DNA of 64,000 bases, taken from positions 27,275-91,274 of the forward strand of contig CAZQVN010000007.1 of the NCBI GenBank assembly GCA_964596775.1, given 5' to 3'. The translations under genes and the position numbers were made by a program. Of the stretch, positions 4,961 to 17,367 are shown one piece after another; positions within the stretch are counted from its first letter, which is position 1, and every line of letters begins with the position of its first letter. The DNA is from an uncultured bacterium. Lineage in GTDB: Bacteria > Eisenbacteria > RBG-16-71-46 > JABDJR01 > JAWXBZ01. The notes under the pieces are model-generated. The model did no database searches, was not told the origin of the DNA, and saw only the letters and a list, made by a program, of their open reading frames with translations.

Positions 4961-7153
4961 TCAGGCCGTCCCCTCCTCCTCCAGATCGTCGAACAGGAAC
5001 TGGTGCCGCTCCACGCTCGATACCCCCTTCACCTTCTTGATCGCCTTGATCACCCGTTGCAGGTGATTGAGGTTCTTGACCTCGATGATGAACGTGCCCT
5101 GGGCCTGGCCGTCCACGGATTTCATTCCGGCGTTCTTGATGTTCGTGGCCGTCGTCGAAACCGCCGACGCGATGTCCGCAAGCAGCATCTGGCGGTCGGA
5201 CCCGTAGATCACGAGCTTCACGACGAACGACTTGTCCTCGTCGACGTCCCACGAGAGGTCCATCCGCCGGTCCTTGTCGACCTTGTCCTCGAACGTGTTC
5301 GGACAGTCCACCCGGTGCACGGACAGGCCGCGGCCGCGGGTCACGATGCCGATCACCTGGTCGCCGGGAACGGGCTGGCAGCAGCGGGCAAAGTAGATCA
5401 TCAGGTTGCCCACGTCCTGGATGCGGATCCCCTTGCCGGTGCCGATCGTCAGGTCCTTGATCCGCTGGAGCGGGTTCAGCTCCTTCTTCTTCTCCGCGAT
5501 CTCCGGGAACAGGCGGACCAGCGCGTTGTGGGCGCCCACGTGACCTTCGCCGATGGCCCGGAGCAGCCGGAACGGATCGGGAAAGCCGAACGACTGCGCC
5601 GCGTCGATGAGATCCTTGTCCACCGGAACCTTCACGTGGAAGCGCCGCGCCTCGCGGCCGAGCAGGTCGCGGCCCAGCGCCACCGAGTCCTCCGTCCGCT
5701 GCTCGGTCAGCCAGCGACGGATCTTCTGGCGCGCCCGCGGCGACTTGACGATCGACGTCCACTCCTCGGTCGGATGCGCGGACGGCGAGGTCACGATCTG
5801 TATCGAATCCCCGTTCCGCAGCACGTACTTGAGCGACACGATCCGGTTGTTGACCCGGGCGCCGACGGTGCGATGGCCGATGTCGGTGTGAATGAGGTAG
5901 GCAAAGTCGAGCGGCGTGGATCCCTTCGGCAGCCGTTTCAACTCCCCCTTGGGGGTGAACACGAAGACCTCGTCCTGGTACAACGAGGTCTTGAGAAAGT
6001 CCATGAATTCGCCGCCCGACTCGTCGGAGAGCATTCCCGATTCGCCGAAGAGGTCGCCGAGCTTGGCGGCGAGTTCCGAATCGGGCCCCGACCCTTCCTT
6101 GTAGGAATAGTGGGCGGCGATTCCGAGTTCGGCGATCCGGTGCATCTCCACCGTGCGGATCTGCACCTCCACCATCTTGTGGTTGGGGCCGATGACCGTC
6201 GTGTGCAGCGACTGGTACATGTTCCCCTTCGGCGTGGCGATGTAGTCCTTGAACCGCTCGTGCACCGGCGTGAACAGGTCGTGCAGCACGCCGAGAACCC
6301 GGTAGCAGTCGGCCTTGTCCTGCGTGACCACCCGGACGCCGAGCAGGTCCTTGATGTCGGCGAAGTCGCGTTCCTGGGTGACCATCTTCCGGTAGATCGA
6401 GTAGAGATGCTTCGGCCTCCCGGTGACCTCGGCCCTGATTCCGGCCTTCTCCAGTTCGGTGGTCATCGGGGTCAGCACGTCGGAGATGAGCCGCTCGCGC
6501 TCCGACCGGGTCAGCGACACCTTCTCCGCGAGTTCCTTGTACCGCGGGTAGTTGAGATGCTTGAAGGACAGGTCCTCGAGCTCCCACTTGATCCGCCCGA
6601 TCCCGAGGCGATGCGCCAGCGGCGCGTAGATGTCCTGCGTTTCCCTGGCGATCCGCCGCGCCTTCTCCGGCTTCAGGAAGTCGAGCGTGCGCATGTTGTG
6701 CAGGCGGTCGGCCAGCTTGATGAGGATGACCCGGATGTCCTTGGCCGTGGAGAGGAGCATGCGGCGGAAGTTTTCCGCCTGTTCCGACTCGGTGGATTCG
6801 AACTCGAACCCGGTGATCTTCGTGACCCCGGCCACCAGCGCCGCCACCTCCTCGGAAAACTCCGTGGACAGCGTGTCCAGCGTGATGTCGGTGTCCTCGA
6901 CCACGTCGTGGAGCAGGGCCGCGATGAGCACCGTCTCGTCCACGCGCCCGTCGAGAAGCTCGACGAGAATGCGGGCCACCTCGACCGGGTGGTACATGTA
7001 CGGCTCGCCGGACTTCCTGAACTGGCCGGCGTGGGCGCTGTTCGAGAAATGAAACGCCCGCCGGATCGCGTCCCTGTCCAGATCGAGGTGCCGCGCGTCG
7101 ATTTCGCCGATCAGGGAATCGATGATGCCGCTCGACCTGTCCCCGGGAATCAT
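4961..7153 (-). CDS. rel: Bifunctional (p)ppGpp synthetase/hydrolase, long RSH
   Basis: RKSGEPY, LLHDVVED (HD), KLADRLHNMRTL, GRPKHLYSIYRKM, YQSLHT, TGS (PKGSTPLDFAY) and ACT domains. Start ATG 7153 overlaps the recJ TGA. Confidence 0.96.
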   Translation of the reverse strand: MIPGDRSSGIIDSLIGEIDARHLDLDRDAIRRAFHFSNSAHAGQFRKSGEPYMYHPVEVARILVELLDGRVDETVLIAALLHDVVEDTDITLDTLSTEFSEEVAALVAGVTKITGFEFESTESEQAENFRRMLLSTAKDIRVILIKLADRLHNMRTLDFLKPEKARRIARETQDIYAPLAHRLGIGRIKWELEDLSFKHLNYPRYKELAEKVSLTRSERERLISDVLTPMTTELEKAGIRAEVTGRPKHLYSIYRKMVTQERDFADIKDLLGVRVVTQDKADCYRVLGVLHDLFTPVHERFKDYIATPKGNMYQSLHTTVIGPNHKMVEVQIRTVEMHRIAELGIAAHYSYKEGSGPDSELAAKLGDLFGESGMLSDESGGEFMDFLKTSLYQDEVFVFTPKGELKRLPKGSTPLDFAYLIHTDIGHRTVGARVNNRIVSLKYVLRNGDSIQIVTSPSAHPTEEWTSIVKSPRARQKIRRWLTEQRTEDSVALGRDLLGREARRFHVKVPVDKDLIDAAQSFGFPDPFRLLRAIGEGHVGAHNALVRLFPEIAEKKKELNPLQRIKDLTIGTGKGIRIQDVGNLMIYFARCCQPVPGDQVIGIVTRGRGLSVHRVDCPNTFEDKVDKDRRMDLSWDVDEDKSFVVKLVIYGSDRQMLLADIASAVSTTATNIKNAGMKSVDGQAQGTFIIEVKNLNHLQRVIKAIKKVKGVSSVERHQFLFDDLEEEGTA

Positions 7154-8868
7154 GCTCCGGCCCTCACGTCGCGGAAGCGCAGCTGGATGGCGCCTTCGCC
7201 CGCGTACTCGTCGAGTGCCGGAGTGGCGGCGAGCGTGGCCCGGCCTCCGCCCCGGGCCAGTTCCTCCGCATGCTGGGCCAGGTTGAAGCCGATGGCCGTC
7301 ATCCGCTGCCGGCCGTTCGTCACCCGGAGCCGGAGATGACCGTCGCCGACAATCCGGGGCGGGCCCATCATCTTGAGGTCGCGCAGGAGGAACAGCGGCT
7401 CGGGACACCCGGCGCCGAACGGGCCGAGCCGGTCGAGAAAGTCGAGGAGCCCGGTGTCGAGGTCCTCCGGCTGAAGGTCCGCGTCGAGGGTCAGCGGCTG
7501 GTGGTCGGTGTCCGGCGCCGCGTCCCGGACCAGGCCGCAGAGCCGTTCGAACAACTCGTCGAGGCGGTCGCGGTGAACGGTCAGGCCCGCCGCCTGGCTG
7601 TGACCCCCGTGCGCGATCAGGATGTCGGACATCTCGGCGAACGACCGGCCCACATCGAAGCCGCCGAACGAGCGGGCCGAACCGCGGCCGACGTCTCCCT
7701 CCATGGAAATGAGCAGCGTGGGGCGGCGGAACGTTTCGGCCACGCGGGCGGCGGCGATGCCGATCACGCCGGCCGGCCAGTCGTTCGACCAGAGGACGAT
7801 CATGGGCGGGACCTCGCCGAACGCCTCGACCTGTTCCTTCGCGGCCAGCGTCACCCGCTGGTCCGCCTCGCGGCGCTCGGTGTTCATCGTCACGACATCC
7901 CTCGCCAGCGCCTCGGCCTGTTCGAGCGTGTCGGCGAGCAGCAGGTCCACGCCGAGCGAGGCCTTCCCCATGCGCCCGGTCGCGTTCAGCCGCGGAGCGA
8001 GCTGGAACGCCACCTGCGATGCGCTGATTATCCCGGGCGAAAGTTTCGCCGTGTTGCGGAGCGCCACGATGCCCGGCCACTCCGACCGCGACAGGGCGCG
8101 GAGCCCGTGCACCACGAACGTCCGGTTCTCGTCGGTCAGCGGAACGACGTCGGCGATCGTGCCGAGGGCCACCAGCGACAGCGCGTCCACGTAGACCAGC
8201 GGATCCAGGGAGCCCCGGCGCGTCATGGCCATCCCCTGGATGAACTTGGCCGCCACCCCGACGCCGCAGAGCCCGGTGAACGGGTACGTGGCGTCCTCGC
8301 GCATGGCGTCGACGACGGCCACCGCGTTGGGCAGCACCGGCGGGGGCTGGTGATGATCGAGCACGATCAGGTCGATGCCGTGACGGCGGGCCTCCTCGGC
8401 GGGCTCGTTGGCGGTGACGCCGCAGTCCACCGCGATGATCAGGCGGGCGCCGCGCCGGCGCGCCTCGGCAAGCCCGGCGGGCCCGAGTCCGTAGCCGTCC
8501 TTGACCCGCTCGGGCAGAAAATAGGACACGTCCGCCTTGAGTTCGCGAAGCATCTTGAGGAGAAACGACGTGCCGACGATGCCGTCCACGTCGTAATCGC
8601 CGTGCACGAGGATCGGTTCCTTCCGATCGATCGCCTGCCACGCGCGTTCGACGGCCCTGTCCATGTCGGGAAGGCCGAACGGATCGCGGAGCGCCTTGAG
8701 CCTCGGGTCGAGGAAGCGGGTGGCGGTTTCCGGGCTGGAAACGCCGCGGCGGAGCAGAAGTTCGGCGCCGATCCTCGGGACCCCGAGCGCATGAACGAGC
8801 GACGCGGCTTCCGCTTCTGGTACAGCGGGAGCCACGATCCAGTCGCGCTCCATCCCTTTCAGTCTCAC
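7150..8868 (-). CDS. recJ: Single-stranded DNA exonuclease RecJ
   Basis: GDYDVDG, VDCG, DHH, LGTIADVVPL, APRLNATGR, GSARS, GGHSQAAG; GGAGG before the GTG. Confidence 0.96.
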   Translation of the reverse strand: MRLKGMERDWIVAPAVPEAEAASLVHALGVPRIGAELLLRRGVSSPETATRFLDPRLKALRDPFGLPDMDRAVERAWQAIDRKEPILVHGDYDVDGIVGTSFLLKMLRELKADVSYFLPERVKDGYGLGPAGLAEARRRGARLIIAVDCGVTANEPAEEARRHGIDLIVLDHHQPPPVLPNAVAVVDAMREDATYPFTGLCGVGVAAKFIQGMAMTRRGSLDPLVYVDALSLVALGTIADVVPLTDENRTFVVHGLRALSRSEWPGIVALRNTAKLSPGIISASQVAFQLAPRLNATGRMGKASLGVDLLLADTLEQAEALARDVVTMNTERREADQRVTLAAKEQVEAFGEVPPMIVLWSNDWPAGVIGIAAARVAETFRRPTLLISMEGDVGRGSARSFGGFDVGRSFAEMSDILIAHGGHSQAAGLTVHRDRLDELFERLCGLVRDAAPDTDHQPLTLDADLQPEDLDTGLLDFLDRLGPFGAGCPEPLFLLRDLKMMGPPRIVGDGHLRLRVTNGRQRMTAIGFNLAQHAEELARGGGRATLAATPALDEYAGEGAIQLRFRDVRAGA

Positions 8869-8909: not shown

Positions 8910-8938
8910 AATCTAGGCTTCCGGTCACATCATGTCAA
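8910..8938 (-). promoter_or_regulatory. sigma70 promoter of recJ-rel
   Basis: Minus strand TTGACA (8938-8933)-17 nt-TAGATT (8915-8910). Confidence 0.75.
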
Positions 8939-8942
8939 GGAT

Positions 8943-10211
8943 TCAGGGGTCGGGGACCGCCACCCGGACCTCGAACGGGCCGCTGAAACCGTCCAGTCGC
9001 GCAAGGACCGCGCCGGTCGGACTGATGCGCACGAGTTGATCGGCCCGGAGATCCGTCACCCAGAGATCGCCGGATGCCGGGTCGCGCGCGAGACCTCCCG
9101 GGTTGCGGACGTCCGTCAGGGTCGTGATCGTCGTGCCCGCCGGATCCAGGCGGACGATGCGCCCCGCGGCGTTGTCGGTGACCCAGGCGCCCCCCTCGCC
9201 GTCGGAGATGACCTGGAACGGCGCCGCGAACGCATCGTTCCGGAACAGCACGGTGTCGGCGGCGCCGGACACCCGGAAGACCGCGCCGCCCCGGTCCGCC
9301 ATCCAGCAGTCGCCGGTGGCCGGATCCACCGCGACGCTGAACGGGCGGTCGAACCCTTCCAGGACCGTCATCGATCCGTCCGGCCGGCGGTGCAGCAGCC
9401 GCCCCTCGGAGTCGGCCACCCAGACATCGCCGCGACGGATGTCCAGGGCGATGTCCTCGGGAATTCCGATTCCCGAATCGGCGGACACGAGAACGGTGAG
9501 CGAAGGCGACCGGTGTTCGAGAACCGAAGGCCCGTAGATCCCGATCCAGACCGTGGAGTCCGCCGGATTCATGGCCACCGAGAGCGGCTGTCCCCCGGTG
9601 GACAGGGTGGCCTGCCGCGCTCCGTCGCGGTCGTACCGATCCACCTTTCTCTCGAAGAAATCCGCGGTCACGACCCCTCCGTTTCCGGGAAGGATGTCGA
9701 GGTCGCTCGGGATCCGGGTTCCTCCGGGGCGGGCGAGGACATGGCGGGCGTCCGGCGAAACGGGCGTGGGATTTCCGGACCGCTGATCGAGAACCCACAG
9801 CACCCGCCGACCCGGCGTGGCCGGCGACGGCGCCCCGCGGACCGGGGACGCATTCCCGGCGAAGAACGTCGAAAGCGTGTACGTGTAGGTGGAGTCGTTG
9901 ACGACCGCCGTGTCGAGCAGGGAGCGCGCGCCGCTCCCCGGCCCGGGATCGATCGTCAGCACGGCTCCGGCGGCATCCCGTCTTTCGATGGAAAAACCGA
10001 CGAGATCCGTGTACTCCGGCAGTTCCCACTCAAGGGTCACCCGGCCGTTCCCGGCGACGGCCGCGAAGATGTCCGGATTGCCTCCGGTGTCCGGGTTGTC
10101 CGGATCGAACAGGTTGTCGTGATCCCGGGGCGAGCATCCGGATGCGGAGAGCCAGAGGGCGGCGACGAGACCGATGACGGCGCCGCGCCACCGGGCATGC
10201 CTAGAAACCAT
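8943..10211 (-). CDS. Lipoprotein with FN3-like domain and NHL/Vgb-like beta-propeller
   Basis: Start re-placed at MVSRHARW; lipobox ASG-C; RDHDNLFDPDNP; repeats of P.(D/G/S)(L/I/V)A.D...G..WV.D. Confidence 0.75.
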   Translation of the reverse strand: MVSRHARWRGAVIGLVAALWLSASGCSPRDHDNLFDPDNPDTGGNPDIFAAVAGNGRVTLEWELPEYTDLVGFSIERRDAAGAVLTIDPGPGSGARSLLDTAVVNDSTYTYTLSTFFAGNASPVRGAPSPATPGRRVLWVLDQRSGNPTPVSPDARHVLARPGGTRIPSDLDILPGNGGVVTADFFERKVDRYDRDGARQATLSTGGQPLSVAMNPADSTVWIGIYGPSVLEHRSPSLTVLVSADSGIGIPEDIALDIRRGDVWVADSEGRLLHRRPDGSMTVLEGFDRPFSVAVDPATGDCWMADRGGAVFRVSGAADTVLFRNDAFAAPFQVISDGEGGAWVTDNAAGRIVRLDPAGTTITTLTDVRNPGGLARDPASGDLWVTDLRADQLVRISPTGAVLARLDGFSGPFEVRVAVPDP

Positions 10212-11121
10212 GCCGGACCCCCAGCCTGTAGCGGGCTTCGCCGGTGGCCGGTTCCAGGTCCACCGCGGCCGTCGGAACGAGCCCGCGCGGTTCCTCATGG
10301 ATGATCAGGAAGAACGTGGCCAGGAACGCCGCCTCGCCGACCGCCCACCCCACGAGGGACAGCCGGTCGAATCGAACCGCATCGTCGAACAGCCGCTTCT
10401 GGCGGTCGCGGTTTCCCGTCCGCAGGTACGCGTCGTAGCGATCGTCCGCCTGGTCCTTGAAACGCACGGCCGTGTAGACGCCCGCGGCAAGCAGAGTGAC
10501 CGATCCGCCGATCGCCAGCGCCCTGTTGCGGGCCCACCAGGAACCCTCGGAGGCACGGAGCCGCGCCGGAACCGGCGGCGCGAGCGGGTCGAGCTCCACC
10601 CGCTTCGAACCGGAAACGCGGGTATCGGCCAGGACGCTGTCGCCGGGCAGCGTCACCCGGCGGTAGCCGTCGAGGTCCACGAGCAGATCGGTGCCCCACA
10701 GCAACTCCGGCGGCAGGCGCACCGGAGTTTCCCCGATCGTGCGGCCGCCGGCGAGCACCCGGGCTCCCGACGGAGAAGTAAGCAGAACCGGACGGCCGAG
10801 TTCCACGGTCACGGTATCCCCGGCGGCCCCGGTGATCGAGACCGATTCGAAGGGGGGCAGAAGGCTCCGGTCGGCGGGGCGGAGCAGAAGGGTATGCCGG
10901 CCCGGTGCCACCGGGACTTCCTGGATGGAAAACTCCGTCCAGGGAACCGGGGCGCGTTCGGAGTCTCCGGTCAGGTCGATCAGGTCGGCCCCGTCCATGA
11001 CGACCGTGCCCGGACGGAGCACCACGAGCCGGAGCAGCAGGCTTTCCGACGCGGCGGCGGCGTGCGGATGAGCCGGAACGAAGGTCAGCAGCGCGAGGAG
11101 CAATACGGAGCGCGGTTTCAT
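10201..11121 (-). CDS. Exported PEGA-domain protein with C-terminal hydrophobic helices
   Basis: Signal peptide MKPRSVLLLALL; LTSPSGARVLAGGRTIGETP...DLDGY (PEGA-like); ATGA overlap with the upstream gene. Confidence 0.65.
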   Translation of the reverse strand: MKPRSVLLLALLTFVPAHPHAAAASESLLLRLVVLRPGTVVMDGADLIDLTGDSERAPVPWTEFSIQEVPVAPGRHTLLLRPADRSLLPPFESVSITGAAGDTVTVELGRPVLLTSPSGARVLAGGRTIGETPVRLPPELLWGTDLLVDLDGYRRVTLPGDSVLADTRVSGSKRVELDPLAPPVPARLRASEGSWWARNRALAIGGSVTLLAAGVYTAVRFKDQADDRYDAYLRTGNRDRQKRLFDDAVRFDRLSLVGWAVGEAAFLATFFLIIHEEPRGLVPTAAVDLEPATGEARYRLGVRHGF

Positions 11122-12245
11122 GGTCTCTCCCCCGCCTCCGGGTCGCCCGGCAGGGCGGCAAAGTCGTAGGCCACGATGCGGCCGCGGTCGCCGGCCACGA
11201 TCCACAGGCCGCCGGCCGGCACCGGAGGCACGGATACCGTTTCGGGATGACGGACCCGCGCCACAACCTCCCCCGTCTCCGCGCGGAGAACCCAGACGAG
11301 TCCCGACGCGGCCGCCACGGCCACGACGGCACCGTCGCCGGCCGCGGTTGCGCGGAACGGCCCGCCGAGGGCAACGCGCCACGCGGTCGACCCGTCCGCG
11401 GTATCGACGGCGGCCACGCTTCCATCGAGGCCGGCCATCACGATGCGGGACCCCGACCATTCCGGGCGGGAGGTCACCCGCATTCCCAGTTCCGCTTTCC
11501 AGAGGCGGTTTCCGGTGACGGCGTCGAGAAAGTCGAGCCGACCGTCCACCGAGGCGGCTGCCACCCGCTTCCCGAGGGCGGCAATGCCGCAGAGCGCACT
11601 CCCCACGTCGGCGGACCAGCGCTTTTCGCCGCTCCGCGCATCGACCGCGAAGACTTCACCGTTGCGCCCTGGGACGAGGAACAGCGCGTTCTCCCTGTCC
11701 AGCACCGGCGGGCCCCAGACATCGGCATTGAGATTCGTGACCCAGATGGGACGCCCCTCGTGGGGCGACAGGCCGAAGACGCGGCCGTCCCGGGTGGCCA
11801 GGAGTACGGCGCCCTCGAAGAAGAAGGCGCTTCCCGTCACCTCGCCGACTTCATGCCTCCAGCGGACCTTCTTCTTCCCGAGGTCGAACATGTACGCCGA
11901 GCCGTCCGGAACCGACGTTCCGGCAAACAGGGTGCCGTCATGCAGCGTCAGGCTCCCGGTTGCCGAGCCGTCGATCCGTTTCCTCCAGCGCCGGCGACCG
12001 GTGTCGGGGTCGTACTGGACGATCCGCCGGTCGGTGGTGGCCACGTACAGCGCGCCCGCCTCGAACAGGAGCGGCACCTCGATCCCCCGCCCGGCATCCT
12101 CGGACCAGGCCACGGCAGCGGCGGGAAGGGCGTCGAATCCATGCGGCGCGAGAGCCTCGCCCCGGCCCGAGCCCGCGCACCCGTTCAGGCCCCAGAGACA
12201 GGCGGCGGCCAGCAGGAGGAATCGGCGGTTAATAGTTGAATCCAA
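11118..12245 (-). CDS. BamB-like PQQ-repeat beta-propeller lipoprotein
   Basis: Lipobox LNG-C; repeated A.D..TG...W tryptophan-docking motifs. Confidence 0.85.
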   Translation of the reverse strand: MDSTINRRFLLLAAACLWGLNGCAGSGRGEALAPHGFDALPAAAVAWSEDAGRGIEVPLLFEAGALYVATTDRRIVQYDPDTGRRRWRKRIDGSATGSLTLHDGTLFAGTSVPDGSAYMFDLGKKKVRWRHEVGEVTGSAFFFEGAVLLATRDGRVFGLSPHEGRPIWVTNLNADVWGPPVLDRENALFLVPGRNGEVFAVDARSGEKRWSADVGSALCGIAALGKRVAAASVDGRLDFLDAVTGNRLWKAELGMRVTSRPEWSGSRIVMAGLDGSVAAVDTADGSTAWRVALGGPFRATAAGDGAVVAVAAASGLVWVLRAETGEVVARVRHPETVSVPPVPAGGLWIVAGDRGRIVAYDFAALPGDPEAGERP

Positions 12246-15093
12246 TGAAGAAGTCCGTATCCGTTCTCCGGGTCACCGTCCTGAAATCGGTGGTCCGGGT
12301 GAAGTCGAACCTGAGAACGAGAAACCCGCCCAGGCTCGTCCGCAGGCCGAGGCCGAACGCGCCGAACGGCGTGGGAACACCCTCCCCTTCCTCCCAGGCG
12401 TTGCCGGCATCCGCGAGCAGGGCGCCCTGCACGGGCGGCAGCCCGATGTTGCCGAACGGAAACCCGAGAAGGACGCCGTCGAGCAGCGGGAAACGGAGTT
12501 CATTGTTCCACAGCAGCGAACGGCTGCCAAACAGCGAGCGCCGGGGGAAACCGCGGAGCGAATGCGAGCCCCCGAGCACGAAACGCTGCCGGTTCGTACC
12601 CTCCGATATCCGCCCCTGGAGCCGGACGGCGTACCCGGAGCGGAAACCGATCCGGAAGTAGCGCCTCAGGTCGGCGATCACCGCCACGTTTTCCACGTTG
12701 GCCCGCTCGAGATCCGTGGTCACGCCGACTGCGAGGTTGTAGCGGCTTCCGTCGATCGGCCCCAGCGGGTTCCACAGGCTGTTGTCGTGGATCAGCGACA
12801 GGTAGTTCGTGGCCAGGACCGCGGTTCTCGCCTGCCGGAAGGAATCGTCGGAGCGATCCGAGTGGAACAGGAACAGCGAGGACTCGATCCTGTCGAACTT
12901 GGAAAACGGATAGCTGCCGATGAAGTTGACGCCGGCGCGCCGCTCGAAGTAGCGGAAGTCGCGCTCGTCGAGGAAGTCGCCGGCGAAGTGATACGCGCCG
13001 GCTCCGTAGTTGAACCGCCGGGTCAGGTTGAAGTAGGTGAAGCCGGCGTTGAACCGGGAGAGAAGGTCGCCGGTCGTTTCCGCGGTGTTCGACAGCTGGA
13101 AGAAGATGAGCTGGTCGCCGAGCTGGTCGGTCAGGAGCGCCTGCAGCCCCTCGCCGGACCCCAGTCCCGGGTCCACCGCCACGCCGCCCTGGGCAAAATC
13201 GAGGGAGAAACGCTTGCGGTACGGGATCGTTTCGGCCCGGACGTTCTCCATCCCGTCCTCGACACCCCACGGCAGCCGCATCTCCGTCGAATCGGGCGGC
13301 GAGCCTCCAGCCGGCGCGGCGAGGGAGGCCAGCGGCTCGGAATAGACCAGCGGTCCGTCCGCGGCCTCCACGGAGTCGATGCGGTAGATTCCGTAGCGAA
13401 GGCGATGGTACGCCGTGTAGAGGAACCCGTCGTCCGCCGGAAGCCAGACCGGGTCGAACGCCCCCCCCTGCAGCGACGTCACCCGGAATCCATGCCCGTC
13501 GAGATCGGTGACATGGATCTGCGGAGCGCCCGACCGATCGCTGACGAACGCGATCCGGTCGCCGGCGTGCGACCAGGCCGGGGCCCCGTCCTCGAAATTG
13601 CCCCGGGTGACGGCGCGGATCAGCCCGGTATCACGGTCGAAGAGGAAGATGTTGCGCGATCCGCTGCGGCCGTCCGGCGTCCGGTCCGAGGAAAAGGCGA
13701 TCCGTCTGCCGTCCGGGGAAAACGCGGGATCGAGGTCCTGGTACCAGTCGGCGGTCAGCTTTTCCAGCCGTTCGTCGTCGAGGTGGAACAGGTACAGGTC
13801 GGAGTGGCCGTTCTGCGAGAGGCCGGAAAACGCGACGAGCCGGCCGTCGGGGCTCTGCACCGGCGAGAGGATCCCGTTCAGCCCCTCGAACTGGTAGCGG
13901 GCGATCTGCCGGCGCTTCTTCAGGTCGTAGAGGAACAGCGCGTCGCGCTCGTGGAACTTGGAGGTGAAGACGAGGCGGCCGTCGTGCCCCACGTCGATGC
14001 GGCTCTGGAACGGATGGAGGGATTCGTACTCGGCGGTGCGCTCGCCTTCGACGATGACGTCCAGGTCCTTTTCCTCGCCGGCGATCGAGGCCATGTAGAT
14101 GTTCGTGTATCCGCTGCGCGGCGAGACGAAGAGAAACCGGTCCTCGCCGAGCCCGGCCGACGCCGGAACCAGCGTCGGCTTGAAGGACGGTCCGCGGACC
14201 GCGAGTGGCTTGCCGTCCTCGGTGGGGGTCCGGGCCATCTCGATGCCGGGATAGAAACGGAGCTTGAGCCGGCGGTGCCACTTTTCGGAGAGCTCCCGTT
14301 CCGAAATGCCGAGCGTGATGTTCAGAACGTCGCTGAACGAACGTCCCTTCCAGAGGTTCTGGTACAGCGCGGGAATGGCGTCCGGGCCGTATTCCTCCTC
14401 GATGAAACCGCAGAGATCCTGGCCGACCTTGTAGATCGTGAACGATCCGTAGAAGCGCCAGAGGTCGGGAATGGCCGGCAGCTGGTTCGAAAGCACGAGA
14501 TCCCGAAGGACCATCTCCCCGATGCCGTCCCACTTTCCCGACCAGAGATCGGCCATCCCCTCCGACATCCAGAGCGGCGCGTCCACCGGCTGTCCGCGAT
14601 AGTGCCGGCCGTACACGCTTTCAAGGATGGAGAGCTGGTACACGTGCACGAGTTCGTGATGGATCGTGGAGCGGAAATCCGACATCGAGCCGTTGAACGG
14701 AATGGCCACCCGCCCCTTGATGAACTCGGTGAATCCGGCCACGCCCTCCGGAAGAAAGAACGGGCTGATGTTCGTCTGCTCGAAGTCCTGGTGGCTGGCA
14801 TAGATGATCAGCGGAATGCGATGGTCCACATGCCAGGCAAAGCGCACCGCGAGGTCGGCGAACGACTCCTCGGCCATCGCCAGCGCGATGGTCGCCAGCG
14901 ATTCCTCTTCCGGATAGAAGAACAGATCGAAGTGGGGGCTCTTCAGCACGCGCCACTGAAAGTCCGTGTACTGAATCTTGTTCTTGCCGAAACTGATCGT
15001 CTGGCCCGAAGCGGGCTTCGGCGCCAGGCAGAGCAGTGCCAGGGCCAGCAGGAACGGCGGGGTGAGGAGGCCACGCCGGAGCGGAACAGTCAC
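12229..15093 (-). CDS. Omp85/BamA-family protein: peptidase-MA-like domain + PD40/TolB-like propeller + beta-barrel, no POTRA visible
   Basis: HELVH and LWMSEGMA; PD40 repeats (PAFSPDGRRIAFSSDR); barrel with LGGSHSLRGF and terminal FFIGFNY. Start GTG 15093 behind GAGGAGG, downstream of the promoter. Confidence 0.85.
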   Translation of the reverse strand: MTVPLRRGLLTPPFLLALALLCLAPKPASGQTISFGKNKIQYTDFQWRVLKSPHFDLFFYPEEESLATIALAMAEESFADLAVRFAWHVDHRIPLIIYASHQDFEQTNISPFFLPEGVAGFTEFIKGRVAIPFNGSMSDFRSTIHHELVHVYQLSILESVYGRHYRGQPVDAPLWMSEGMADLWSGKWDGIGEMVLRDLVLSNQLPAIPDLWRFYGSFTIYKVGQDLCGFIEEEYGPDAIPALYQNLWKGRSFSDVLNITLGISERELSEKWHRRLKLRFYPGIEMARTPTEDGKPLAVRGPSFKPTLVPASAGLGEDRFLFVSPRSGYTNIYMASIAGEEKDLDVIVEGERTAEYESLHPFQSRIDVGHDGRLVFTSKFHERDALFLYDLKKRRQIARYQFEGLNGILSPVQSPDGRLVAFSGLSQNGHSDLYLFHLDDERLEKLTADWYQDLDPAFSPDGRRIAFSSDRTPDGRSGSRNIFLFDRDTGLIRAVTRGNFEDGAPAWSHAGDRIAFVSDRSGAPQIHVTDLDGHGFRVTSLQGGAFDPVWLPADDGFLYTAYHRLRYGIYRIDSVEAADGPLVYSEPLASLAAPAGGSPPDSTEMRLPWGVEDGMENVRAETIPYRKRFSLDFAQGGVAVDPGLGSGEGLQALLTDQLGDQLIFFQLSNTAETTGDLLSRFNAGFTYFNLTRRFNYGAGAYHFAGDFLDERDFRYFERRAGVNFIGSYPFSKFDRIESSLFLFHSDRSDDSFRQARTAVLATNYLSLIHDNSLWNPLGPIDGSRYNLAVGVTTDLERANVENVAVIADLRRYFRIGFRSGYAVRLQGRISEGTNRQRFVLGGSHSLRGFPRRSLFGSRSLLWNNELRFPLLDGVLLGFPFGNIGLPPVQGALLADAGNAWEEGEGVPTPFGAFGLGLRTSLGGFLVLRFDFTRTTDFRTVTRRTDTDFFIGFNY

Positions 15094-15133
15094 GAAAAGA
15101 TCGCCTCCTCGACACGGGGAGAAAACTGCCCAA

Positions 15134-15163
15134 AGTCTAGTGACCAAAGGACTTCCCTGTCAA
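15134..15163 (-). promoter_or_regulatory. sigma70 promoter of the Omp85 operon
   Basis: Minus strand TTGACA (15163-15158)-18 nt-TAGACT (15139-15134). Confidence 0.7.
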
Positions 15164-15429
15164 TGCCCCGTTCCCCCGGCGGCCGGTGGGAAAAAATTCT
15201 TGCGATTTCGTCCGTATTTGATTCTACTTTTGATGTACCGGGTGTCTTTCGGAGCTGCTCCCCCGATTTCTCGTCCGCAGAATCGGGACCGGTTCCGCAC
15301 CCGACCCCCCAGAATTCAACCGCCCCGGGGGAGGATTCATGATGGCCTGAACAGTTGCCGCCCGCCGCGGTTCCCATCCGACCCTGATCCTCCACCAATC
15401 ATTCATTCCAGCGTCCCAAGAGGTATGTC

Positions 15430-15756
15430 ATGAGTTTTGTCGATCGCACCATTCAATGTCGTGACTGCGGTACTTCCTTCATTTTTACGGCCGGAGAGCA
15501 GGCCTTCTACCAGCAGAAGGGTTTTCAGAACGAACCGACGCGCTGCCCGAACTGTCGCCGCCAGAAGAAGGACAGCGCCGGACCGCGCGGAGGCGACTCC
15601 GGTCACCGGGGTGGAGGGGGCGGTGGGGGCAACCGCCAGCTTTTCAAGACCGTCTGCTCCGCCTGCGGAGCGGAAACCCAGGTTCCGTTCGCTCCCTCGG
15701 GAGACCGGCCGGTCTACTGTCGCAACTGCTACAACTCCCGACGCGGAGCAATGTGA
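15430..15756 (+). CDS. Zinc-ribbon protein with CxxC-x17-CxxC domain
   Basis: CRDCG..FIFTAGEQAFY..KGF.NEP.RCPNC, Gly-rich linker, CSACG...VPF.P...RPVYCRNC; SD AAGAGG. Confidence 0.9.
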   Translation: MSFVDRTIQCRDCGTSFIFTAGEQAFYQQKGFQNEPTRCPNCRRQKKDSAGPRGGDSGHRGGGGGGGNRQLFKTVCSACGAETQVPFAPSGDRPVYCRNCYNSRRGAM

Positions 15757-15783
15757 ACGGCGGGAACAACGCACAGCCTTGAA

Positions 15784-15821
15784 CTGAAAAAGACCCGGAA
15801 TCGCTTCCGGGTCTTTTTCAG
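15784..15821. terminator. Bidirectional rho-independent terminator
   Basis: Perfect 17-bp inverted repeat CTGAAAAAGACCCGGAA-TCGC-TTCCGGGTCTTTTTCAG between the convergent zinc-ribbon gene and rnpB. Confidence 0.9.
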
Positions 15822-15822
15822 T

Positions 15823-16195
15823 CTCGAGTCGTTCGTAAGCCGAATTCTGTCCGGGGATGAACCCGTGACGATCATTTCTCTGGGACGGCCGTTACCGGAC
15901 GCCTCAAGCAACCTACCCGAGAGTGATGACGGAGGGGGCCCCTCCTCCTCTCCTATTGGGTCTTGCTCCAGGTGGGGTTTACCGAGCCATCGAAGTCGCC
16001 TCCGATGCTGGTGAGCTCTTACCTCACCGTTTCACCCTTACCGCCCGCTCGCGAGGAGCGGGAGGCGGTCTGCTTTCTGTTGCACTTTCCCTGGGATCGC
16101 TCCCGCTGGGGGTTACCCAGCACCTTGCCCTGTGGAGTTCGGACTTTCCTCGACCGGCGCCGAAGCGCCCGCCGCGATCGTCTGAACGACTCGAG
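15823..16195 (-). ncRNA. rnpB: RNase P RNA (bacterial type A)
   Basis: GAGGAAAGTCC, AGTGCAACAGAAA, GGGTGAAACGGTG, GGTAAACCCCACCTGGAGCAAG and ACAGAATTCGGCTTAC signatures; 12-bp P1 helix CTCGAGTCGTTC/GAACGACTCGAG. Confidence 0.96.
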
Positions 16196-16201
16196 CAGGA
16201 A

Positions 16202-16210
16202 ACTGTAGCA
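16202..16210 (-). promoter_or_regulatory. Extended -10 promoter of rnpB
   Basis: TG-C-TACAGT 6 nt before the P1 5' end. Confidence 0.55.
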
Positions 16211-16216
16211 CAGAAA

Positions 16217-16645
16217 TCAGCTCCCGGCGCGCCCTTCGAGCTGCCCGTCGATGGCCTCGTTGGCCAGCCGGTCGGCGCGACCGTTCAGGGAGCGGGCCAC
16301 ATGCCGGAACCGGTACACGGGAATCTTCTTCAGCGCATCGAGAACCCGGGCGTAGAGCAGCTTCATCTTTTCGTCCTTGACCCGGTACTCGCGGTTGAGC
16401 TGCTTGACGACGAGTTCGGAGTCGAGGTGAAAGGAGACTTCGGCGGGGTTCATCGCGCCGACCCGTTCCACCGCGGACAGGAGCGCGGAATACTCGGCGA
16501 CGTTGTTCGTGCACTGGCCGAGGTATCCGTTCCACTCGTCGACGGTGTTTCCGGCCTCGTCGAGAACCACGATGCCCATGCCGGCGTGGCCCGGGTTCCC
16601 GCGCGCCGCCCCGTCCGTGTACACGGACAGAACGGGACGGCTCAC
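16217..16645 (-). CDS. rnhA: Ribonuclease HI family protein
   Basis: VYTDGAARGNPG, TNNVAEY, DSELVVKQ, N.RAD.LAN; GTGA overlap start. Confidence 0.92.
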   Translation of the reverse strand: MSRPVLSVYTDGAARGNPGHAGMGIVVLDEAGNTVDEWNGYLGQCTNNVAEYSALLSAVERVGAMNPAEVSFHLDSELVVKQLNREYRVKDEKMKLLYARVLDALKKIPVYRFRHVARSLNGRADRLANEAIDGQLEGRAGS

Positions 16646-17367
16646 GGCTCGCCGCCGTCTTCCGAAGCCAGCCAGACGAGGATGCGTCCGCACCCCTCGC
16701 ATACCCGCAGAGATTCGGCCTTCTTGACCTCGTTGACGAACTGGGGAGGGAGAGCGGTGAAACACCCCCCACAGGCGCCCCTCTGCACCGGAACGACGGC
16801 CTGTCCGCCCTTGGCCCTGGCGAGCTGGCGGAACTTCGACTGGACCTGCTGGGGAAGCAGCGTGGCGCGGGCGGCACTGTCGGCGCGCAACCGTTCCAGT
16901 TCGGCCTTCAACCCGGCCGTCTTCTGGTCGATTTCCCGCTGCCGTTCCGCGATCCGCGCCTTTGCCGCGTTCACATGCTCCCTGGCGGCCGCCACGCGGG
17001 TCGCGTGCTCCTCGTCCACCTCGAACGACTCGAGCACCCGCGTTTCCAGGTCCGATTTCTTTTCGCGGGTGAACGTGGCCTCGTTCTTCATGGCGTTGAG
17101 CTCGGCGTTGGACTTGGCCTGAGCCTGCTTGGTGGCGTTCTGTCGGAGGGCCTGTTCGAGGGTCTCGATCTCGCCTTCGAGATCCTTCCTCTTCCTGACG
17201 ACGAGGAGACGGGCGTCCTCGCACGCCTTGAGTTCGTTTTCCCGGACCTTCAGTTCCGCTTCCGCCTGCTCCAGGGCCCGGGGGAGGCGTTCCAGCTCCC
17301 CCTCGACGGCCTGGATCTCCGTTTCACACTTCTGGAGATCCCAGAGAACGTTCAGATCCAGCGCCAA
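16642..17367 (-). CDS. Coiled-coil C4-type zinc-ribbon protein (DUF164, CT398/HP0958-like)
   Basis: Long coiled coil, then CGGC...CEGCGRIL. Confidence 0.9.
   Translation of the reverse strand: MALDLNVLWDLQKCETEIQAVEGELERLPRALEQAEAELKVRENELKACEDARLLVVRKRKDLEGEIETLEQALRQNATKQAQAKSNAELNAMKNEATFTREKKSDLETRVLESFEVDEEHATRVAAAREHVNAAKARIAERQREIDQKTAGLKAELERLRADSAARATLLPQQVQSKFRQLARAKGGQAVVPVQRGACGGCFTALPPQFVNEVKKAESLRVCEGCGRILVWLASEDGGEP

Follow-up and report, generated by a model that had tools for sequence, protein, structure and literature searches.

A conserved four-gene envelope locus of Eisenbacteria led by a POTRA-less Omp85 protein with a predicted zinc peptidase domain

To our knowledge, every machine that builds the outer membranes of bacteria or organelles has an Omp85 protein at its core, and all characterised members use POTRA domains. 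The POTRA arm handles substrates in both BamA and TamA, the third POTRA domain of BamA (POTRA3) is the place where BamB binds, and in E. coli the periplasmic M48 zinc protease BepA, a separate soluble M48/TPR protein, works at the machinery for assembling beta-barrels (BAM). Here we describe a locus of four genes, A to D, whose lead product is an Omp85 protein without POTRA domains. The locus lies in a stretch of 64,000 nucleotides (nt), hereafter the window, from an uncultured bacterium of Eisenbacteria (assembly GCA_964596775.1, contig CAZQVN010000007.1, positions 27,275 to 91,274; GC content ~68%). We are highly confident that this four-gene module is real and conserved, and hold with evenly balanced confidence that it is a dedicated outer-membrane-anchored proteolytic or quality-control machine built around the POTRA-less Omp85 protein, not a second BAM.

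The closest described proteins form the 'WD40-like' Omp85 cluster of Heinz and Lithgow (2014; Front Microbiol 5:370; PMC4104836), whose members lack POTRA domains, carry a PD40 propeller closest to TolB and have aminopeptidase structural hits in Table S3 of that study. They come from Rhodothermus, Caldithrix, Cloacimonas and others, with the cultured Rhodothermus marinus and Caldithrix abyssi among them, and were likened to a BamA-BamB fusion; the account covers architecture only and gives no function, active-site analysis or partner genes (PMC4104836). Protein A shows all three hallmarks of the group, namely a C-terminal Omp85 barrel, no POTRA, and a TolB-like PD40 propeller together with an aminopeptidase-like region, and is a new member of a subfamily that has been catalogued but is functionally uncharacterised. 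Our literature search found no description of partner genes of A or of the envelope machinery of Eisenbacteria, and as far as can be told the conserved partner set (the hairpin module of C, B-C fusions and an NHL lipoprotein as fourth subunit) is previously undescribed.

In this locus, as in BAM, a lipoprotein with an eight-bladed propeller of PQQ type accompanies an Omp85 barrel in which the L6 RGF/Y and DxG motifs occur. However, BamA has five POTRA domains and A has none, A carries a peptidase, and B falls under the BamB equivalog score. The module for translocation and assembly (TAM) differs in that TamA has three POTRA domains and an adjacent TamB (DUF490), whereas A is devoid of POTRA, and B, C and D gave no match to the TamB/DUF490 family. 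By analogy, BepA may be a functional parallel, a zinc metalloprotease acting at an Omp85 machine with a proposed role in outer-membrane protein quality control, but the M1-like gluzincin of A is covalently fused to the barrel, and BepA and A are not homologous.

Gene calls, made from an open reading frame (ORF) listing and inspection of start codons, are as follows.

12229..15093, minus strand: gene A, 954 amino acids (aa), GTG start, GGAGG 8 nt upstream
11118..12245, minus strand: gene B, 375 aa, TTG as the sole start upstream of its lipobox
10201..11121, minus strand: gene C, 306 aa
8943..10211, minus strand: gene D, 422 aa

Neighbouring genes overlap at each junction, by 17 nt (A/B), 4 nt (B/C, ATGA) and 11 nt (C/D), and judged from their sequence the four genes are one translationally coupled operon. 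A longer alternative start for A, TTG at 15147, would fall within the promoter-like site described below. The earlier note on this DNA had proposed these overlaps, four exported products (Omp85, BamB-like, PEGA and NHL) and three beta-propellers. The overlaps were confirmed, on the minus strand, and export is borne out by signal peptides in A and C and lipoboxes in B and D, all identified by inspection; the propellers proved to be PD40/TolB-like in A, PQQ_2/BamB-like in B and NHL in D. The four identities hold too, with the amendments that A has an HExxH peptidase in addition and that PEGA in C stays below threshold in this genome.

From its N-terminus, protein A comprises a cleavable signal peptide, then the M1-like zinc peptidase, next a TolB-like propeller of six blades and last a barrel like that of BamA.

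14224..14991, minus strand: gluzincin peptidase domain of A, residues ~35-290, with GFTE at 120-123, HELVH at 146-150 (nt 14644-14658), Glu178 (nt 14560-14562) and Tyr221
13369..14211, minus strand: PD40/TolB-like propeller of A, residues ~295-575, six blades, assigned from profile and fold matches
12232..13236, minus strand: Omp85-type barrel of A, residues ~620-954, with L6 LRGF, ADAG and C-terminal IGFNY

An AlphaFold2 model of A, computed from 76 homologues (Eisenbacteria, Zixibacteria, Ignavibacteria, Latescibacterota, Gemmatimonadota and Glassbacteria), has a predicted local distance difference test score (pLDDT) of 90 and a predicted TM-score (pTM) of 0.89. Its N-terminal domain is helical/beta, a propeller with some six blades follows (295-572) and the barrel has ~16 long strands (630-952); the linker between propeller and barrel (residues 573-620) is coil of low pLDDT, disordered in the model. 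In profile searches A matched PD40 at 67 bits and, above its cut-off, ShlB at 24.9 bits; Omp85, at 21.5 bits, fell slightly short of its own, and Peptidase_MA_2 reached 26 bits against a cut-off of 32.4. No POTRA family was detected in A at E<=0.01, the Pfam search gave no Peptidase_M1 match, and the BamA equivalog TIGR03303 did not match A. Precomputed annotations on A homologues include Pfam accessions PF26549 and PF26550.

Modelled separately, residues 31-300 of A (pLDDT 83) matched M1 aminopeptidases at the top of the list, as well as M9 collagenases and an M61 enzyme (TM-score ~0.5, E from 4e-4); a PDB sequence search with the N-terminal domain alone returned nothing meaningful. G120, H146, E147, H150, E178 (in WxxEGxA) and Y221 are invariant in the 76 homologues and T122 and E123 are conserved in at least 90% of them, while all eight active-site residues are invariant in a 16-sequence set that includes paralogues only ~32% identical. 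Indeed, this catalytic set is the most strictly conserved part of A outside the barrel. Protein A combines HExxH and a downstream Glu on a thermolysin-like fold, the definition of gluzincins (MA(E)), and by its residues the catalytic set is that of an M1-like gluzincin. The strict conservation of these residues argues that the peptidase is active. With the M1 aminopeptidases (PepN, ERAP and tricorn-interacting factor F3) A shares the catalytic fold, HExxH, the WxxEGxA Glu and the downstream Tyr, and its GxTE motif, 26 residues before HExxH, stands where M1 enzymes have the exopeptidase motif GxMEN, a likeness by position only. The M1 enzymes differ from A in that only the catalytic domain is common to both, the HExxH-to-Glu spacing is 28 in A, not 18, and A is barrel-anchored. 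The invariant active site points to proteolysis rather than, or besides, insertion or secretion.

For the propeller of A, TolB of the Tol-Pal system, itself a six-bladed PD40 propeller, is the top match both by sequence profile (E 2e-27 against the PDB) and by fold (Foldseek E 1e-10). The TolB N-terminal domain is absent from A, however, and A scores 122 bits against TIGR02800 (TolB), whose cut-off is 343; separate TolB-like genes occur in the genome (for example C2:152782-154203). A PD40-type propeller beside a peptidase is also the arrangement of tricorn, DPP-IV and acylaminoacyl peptidase, in which the propellers gate or capture polypeptides.

Foldseek placed the barrel of A with BamA and TamA barrels, including 9ccg (F. 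nucleatum BamA), 7nre and 8us3. The barrel keeps L6 LRGF, ADAG and, four positions ahead of its aromatic C-terminus (IGFNY), a Gly, whose spacing recurs in the BamA of this genome (…LFGRFF). Such barrel matches and retained motifs, a BamB-like partner and the BamA-BamB fusion analogy suggested by Heinz and Lithgow (PMC4104836) would all fit an alternative BAM/TAM-like insertase, one serving a special set of outer-membrane proteins via its lateral seam, with the propellers of A, B and D replacing POTRA domains and the peptidase secondary, for instance clearing stalled clients. We regard such an insertase as unlikely, however: A has no POTRA and there is no TamB-like gene, a catalytic set conserved more strictly than anything else outside the barrel is hard to explain if proteolysis is incidental, and the genome already has a canonical BamA and other POTRA-bearing Omp85 proteins.

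C3:143478-146153: canonical BamA, TIGR03303 at 462 bits against a cut-off of 297
G000:C15:29323-32544 (L055:7324-10545), minus strand: paralogue of A, ~1040 aa, ~32% identity, same catalytic residues

The genome holds eight or nine other Omp85-type matches in all, POTRA-bearing Omp85 proteins among them, and because canonical BamA and these further Omp85-type proteins are present elsewhere, A is not the general insertase. Within its class, every one of the 41 genomes has A, in most cases together with a second paralogue. The paralogue locus of this genome has no B, C or D nearby; the ORF directly downstream of the paralogue is long and encodes a family-9 heptosyltransferase (lipopolysaccharide core) in its C-terminal part.

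Protein B carries the lipobox LNGC and a PQQ_2 match of 126 bits, and scores 189 bits against TIGR03300 (BamB), where the cut-off is 285. With a profile built from B orthologues, solved BamB structures were retrieved from the PDB at E ~1e-47, and B is predicted to be BamB-like in fold family only. All full-length B matches among the relatives searched directly adjoin A, and a 16-sequence B profile found no full-length B genome-wide in the four Eisenbacteria families that lack B at the locus. Considering B, C and D jointly, we think it likely that they are dedicated partners of A, B being an ancient one. That B is an ordinary BamB was considered and judged unlikely, with full-length B occurring only beside A and lost genome-wide where lost from the locus. 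A single other PQQ protein of the genome resembles B.

G000:C3:26460-28652, minus strand: PQQ-propeller protein, ~730 aa

It has a long N-terminal cytoplasmic region, a Pro-rich linker, one transmembrane helix and a propeller, and is not a lipoprotein. Relatives of this transmembrane-anchored protein are present in most genomes of the class.

Synteny was assessed by searching hidden Markov models of B, C and D against fetched neighbourhoods of A, with the following outcome.

Eisenbacteria relatives, 25 evaluable loci: ABCD 14, A-CD 10, A alone 1
Eisenbacteria in a species-genome collection, 11 loci: ABCD 5, A-CD 5, ABC 1
Latescibacterota, 3 loci: ABCD 3
Zixibacteria, 9 loci: AB 9
Ignavibacteria, 8 loci: AB 7
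Metagenome-assembled genomes without a group name, 6 loci: AB 5
Gemmatimonadota, 31 loci: A alone 26, AB 4 (with B immediately behind A in convergent orientation), ABC 1 (contig ends within D)

The A-B adjacency is thus kept across at least four named phyla at ~20% B identity. In the more distant Eisenbacteria families the C-D pair is on the opposite strand, yet within a few kb of A, and within the order of this genome recJ also follows D. One Eisenbacteria family (f9: L037, L038, L040 and L042; also L056, L057, L059 and L066) has A, C, D, a gap of 0.7-1.7 kb and then the paralogue, so that both A paralogues lie on one strand a few kb apart; B is absent genome-wide from this family. Of eight genomes tested from other phyla, only that of Latescibacterota yielded the C module, next to A and with one weaker second match (2.3e-9) elsewhere. 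A role of C-D as universal partner of A was rejected, the C module being absent from the tested Zixibacteria, Ignavibacteria, Gemmatimonadales and Longimicrobiales genomes; C-D is a fixed pair associated with A in Eisenbacteria and Latescibacterota.

The earlier note had proposed that gene-neighbourhood conservation be checked and had taken its absence, together with a lack of confidently predicted interfaces, as the outcome that would speak against a non-canonical BAM/TAM-like assembly or secretion complex. We find the gene set conserved across families and phyla, with ABCD or A-CD in 24 of the 25 Eisenbacteria relatives, so that absence of synteny was not the outcome. Of the proposed complex, a conserved unit of an Omp85 protein and a BamB-like protein distinct from canonical BAM stands; the BAM/TAM likeness does not carry further, as A has no POTRA, the locus has no TamB-like partner, B lies below the BamB cut-off and the peptidase site is invariant.

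Protein C has a cleavable signal peptide, a PEGA-like domain and a C-terminal two-helix hairpin, in which a hydrophobic helix, a loop of the form ADxxYxxY…DRAxRYDR and a second hydrophobic helix follow one another. This hairpin, not the PEGA domain, is the best-conserved part of C: PEGA (PF08308) reaches 17.8 bits here against a cut-off of 20.8, and 29-53 bits in family members (48.5 in relatives, for example). A Pfam search with the hairpin module matched no family and returned noise only, whereas a library of 1.84 billion proteins holds 1416 representatives of the hairpin family, most of those listed being 140-180 aa long. In three of the representatives (P0147, P0202 and P0206), a PQQ_2 propeller, PEGA and the hairpin are naturally fused. 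One of them (P0147, equal to L043:5208-7355 on the plus strand, from the relative G015) has an N-terminal lipobox and two PEGA domains and is encoded directly downstream of A. Because B and C are fused in some lineages, we infer that C is physically tied to B. The last residues of 10 of 27 C orthologues form a short tail that looks like a strand and closes with an aromatic (…GVRHGF, …ALRF, …EVRF; V-x-L-R-F), and in the sister family of the same order the tail ends in Pro.

10204-10260, minus strand: tail of C, strand-like, resembling an outer-membrane beta-signal
10100-10136, minus strand: conserved N-terminal segment of D, residues 26-37, with C26, R29, N33, L34 and D36 in at least 95% of 40 sequences

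Protein D carries the lipobox SASGC and an NHL propeller (37 bits); an FN3-like stretch was seen by reading only and has no Pfam match. The propeller itself is poorly conserved, and the most conserved part of D is the segment CxxRxxxNLxDP right after the lipid-bearing Cys, which suggests a docking peptide. C and D adjoin or overlap in 39 of the 40 loci that have C, the exception being L062.

These data bear directly on whether the four genes share more than an address. Were they merely co-located, B would serve canonical BamA as an ordinary BamB, and the exported proteins C and D would be unrelated; B is indeed the sole BamB-like lipoprotein of the genome, and A stands alone in most Gemmatimonadota. 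Co-location nevertheless appears very improbable to us in view of an A-B adjacency that persists between phyla despite the divergence of B, the loss of B from whole genomes exactly where it is lost from the A locus, the existence of B-C fusions, a C-D pair that stays close to A even after inversion, and the coupling of the genes by overlaps. With A and B adjacent from phylum to phylum, B and C fused in some lineages and C and D almost always side by side, the simplest reading of the gene order is that the A-B-C-D partnership is functional, and probably physical.

The B-C fusions are also relevant to the side of the membrane on which such a partnership would operate. In a self-exporting surface protease of type-V-like kind, as PlpD, the barrel of A would translocate its own peptidase and propeller for peptide scavenging, and B and D would be surface lipoproteins. 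Surface lipoproteins are common in the FCB group (Fibrobacteres-Chlorobi-Bacteroidetes and relatives), M1 and M9-like peptidases are frequently extracellular, and the source organism comes from a bioreactor community; moreover, PlpD-like surface export has been raised for another non-POTRA Omp85 subfamily (Heinz and Lithgow, PMC4104836). However, type Vd (PlpD-like) proteins are built of a passenger, one POTRA and a 16-strand barrel, and A lacks the POTRA that such exporters keep, while its would-be passenger of ~590 residues, including a closed propeller, would need to pass the barrel. The model of A is one compact, confident arrangement, BamB-like partners are periplasmic in all known cases, and B fused to hairpin-anchored C, as in some lineages, is hard to place on the surface. 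We consider self-export of this kind distinctly unlikely.

In the outer-membrane-anchored proteolytic machine that we favour, A would sit in the outer membrane via its BamA-like barrel, with the peptidase and propeller replacing the POTRA arm on the periplasmic side. The propellers would serve as capture and gating platforms for unfolded envelope polypeptides, and the tethered peptidase would trim or degrade the captured polypeptides at the inner face of the outer membrane. BamA-like, BamB-like and BepA-like roles would thereby be joined in one module that is not a general outer-membrane-protein insertase. That its function is specifically proteolytic quality control is possible, at a confidence somewhat short of even.

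A broader proposal, which we put forward tentatively and think unlikely as it stands, is that the module represents a class of Omp85 machine that is third by function and found widely in the FCB group, working as a device that spans the envelope and disposes of polypeptides or matures them. In that case a BamA-like seam would capture polypeptides that bear a beta-signal or have stalled, the TolB-like, BamB-like and NHL propellers would hold the chain, the barrel-tethered M1-like peptidase would degrade it, and the inner membrane would be tied in through the hairpin protein C. Both the tail of C, which resembles a beta-signal, and the CxxRxxxNLxDP segment of D may be docking peptides built into the module, for use at the barrel seam or at a propeller.

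Several points weigh against a dedicated proteolytic machine. The Peptidase_MA_2 and Omp85 scores of A and the BamB score of B are all under curated cut-offs, and the BamA-type motifs retained in the barrel appear equally compatible with insertase activity. The N-terminal 590 residues of A are presumed to be periplasmic because that is the default for sequence before strand 1 of an Omp85 barrel, and the placing of the C hairpin in the inner membrane is a guess from its hydrophobicity. B could additionally serve canonical BamA, and A can work alone or with unlinked partners, as most Gemmatimonadota (26/31) have A with no B, C or D nearby. Finally, the sequencing runs that carry the sequence are three DNA runs from a bioreactor metagenome, with no RNA runs.

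Around the four genes, the window holds the following features.

15163..15134, minus strand: sigma-70-like site TTGACA-18-TAGACT, upstream of A, 10/12 consensus matches
8938..8910, minus strand: sigma-70-like site TTGACA-17-TAGATT, between the D stop (5 nt away) and recJ
7150..8868: recJ, downstream of D, TIGR00644 at 479 bits against a cut-off of 397
15403-15774, minus strand: zinc-ribbon-type gene, 123 aa, two CxxC pairs, Gly-rich middle
15821-16193, minus strand: bacterial RNase P RNA class A, 318 bits, full length

Both promoters that had been proposed from the sequence, one for the unit and a new one for recJ right after the last gene, are present as consensus matches, which is how all promoter-like sites were defined; a consensus scan counted four sigma-70-like sites in 7.7 kb, with 0.5 expected from shuffles. 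The region upstream of A gave no alignment with that of the nearest relative (65% A identity), and the promoter of A therefore remains a mere consensus match. The second site plausibly marks the downstream limit of the unit. That the operon is self-contained is plausible only, as no terminator-like site was found 3' of D and the sequencing runs include no RNA. An Rfam scan of the region found no leader element before A, its sole match being the RNase P RNA further upstream; the plus-strand ORF at 15923..17122 that overlaps this RNA is probably spurious. A hairpin followed by a T-run lies at ~15785-15815, just downstream of the RNase P RNA. The zinc-ribbon-type gene, whose product has no NCBIfam match, is flanked by rnpB and the operon promoter and stands ~240 nt upstream of the -35 site.

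The subfamily to which A belongs is ancient and widespread, and for its function we infer a physical complex, a proteolytic role and the substrates. A zinc peptidase, apparently active, and a TolB-like propeller take the place of the POTRA arm in this locus, and the exported partners of A form a fixed set. Direct testing of the idea is possible since members of the subfamily are listed in cultured species (PMC4104836). Because A occurs in each of the 41 genomes of relatives, and in five or more named phyla, it probably matters for the envelope biology of a large and mainly uncultured section of the bacterial tree. If the module is a proteolytic quality-control or processing machine, it would represent a new use of the Omp85 barrel and a fused counterpart of the BamA-BamB-BepA trio.

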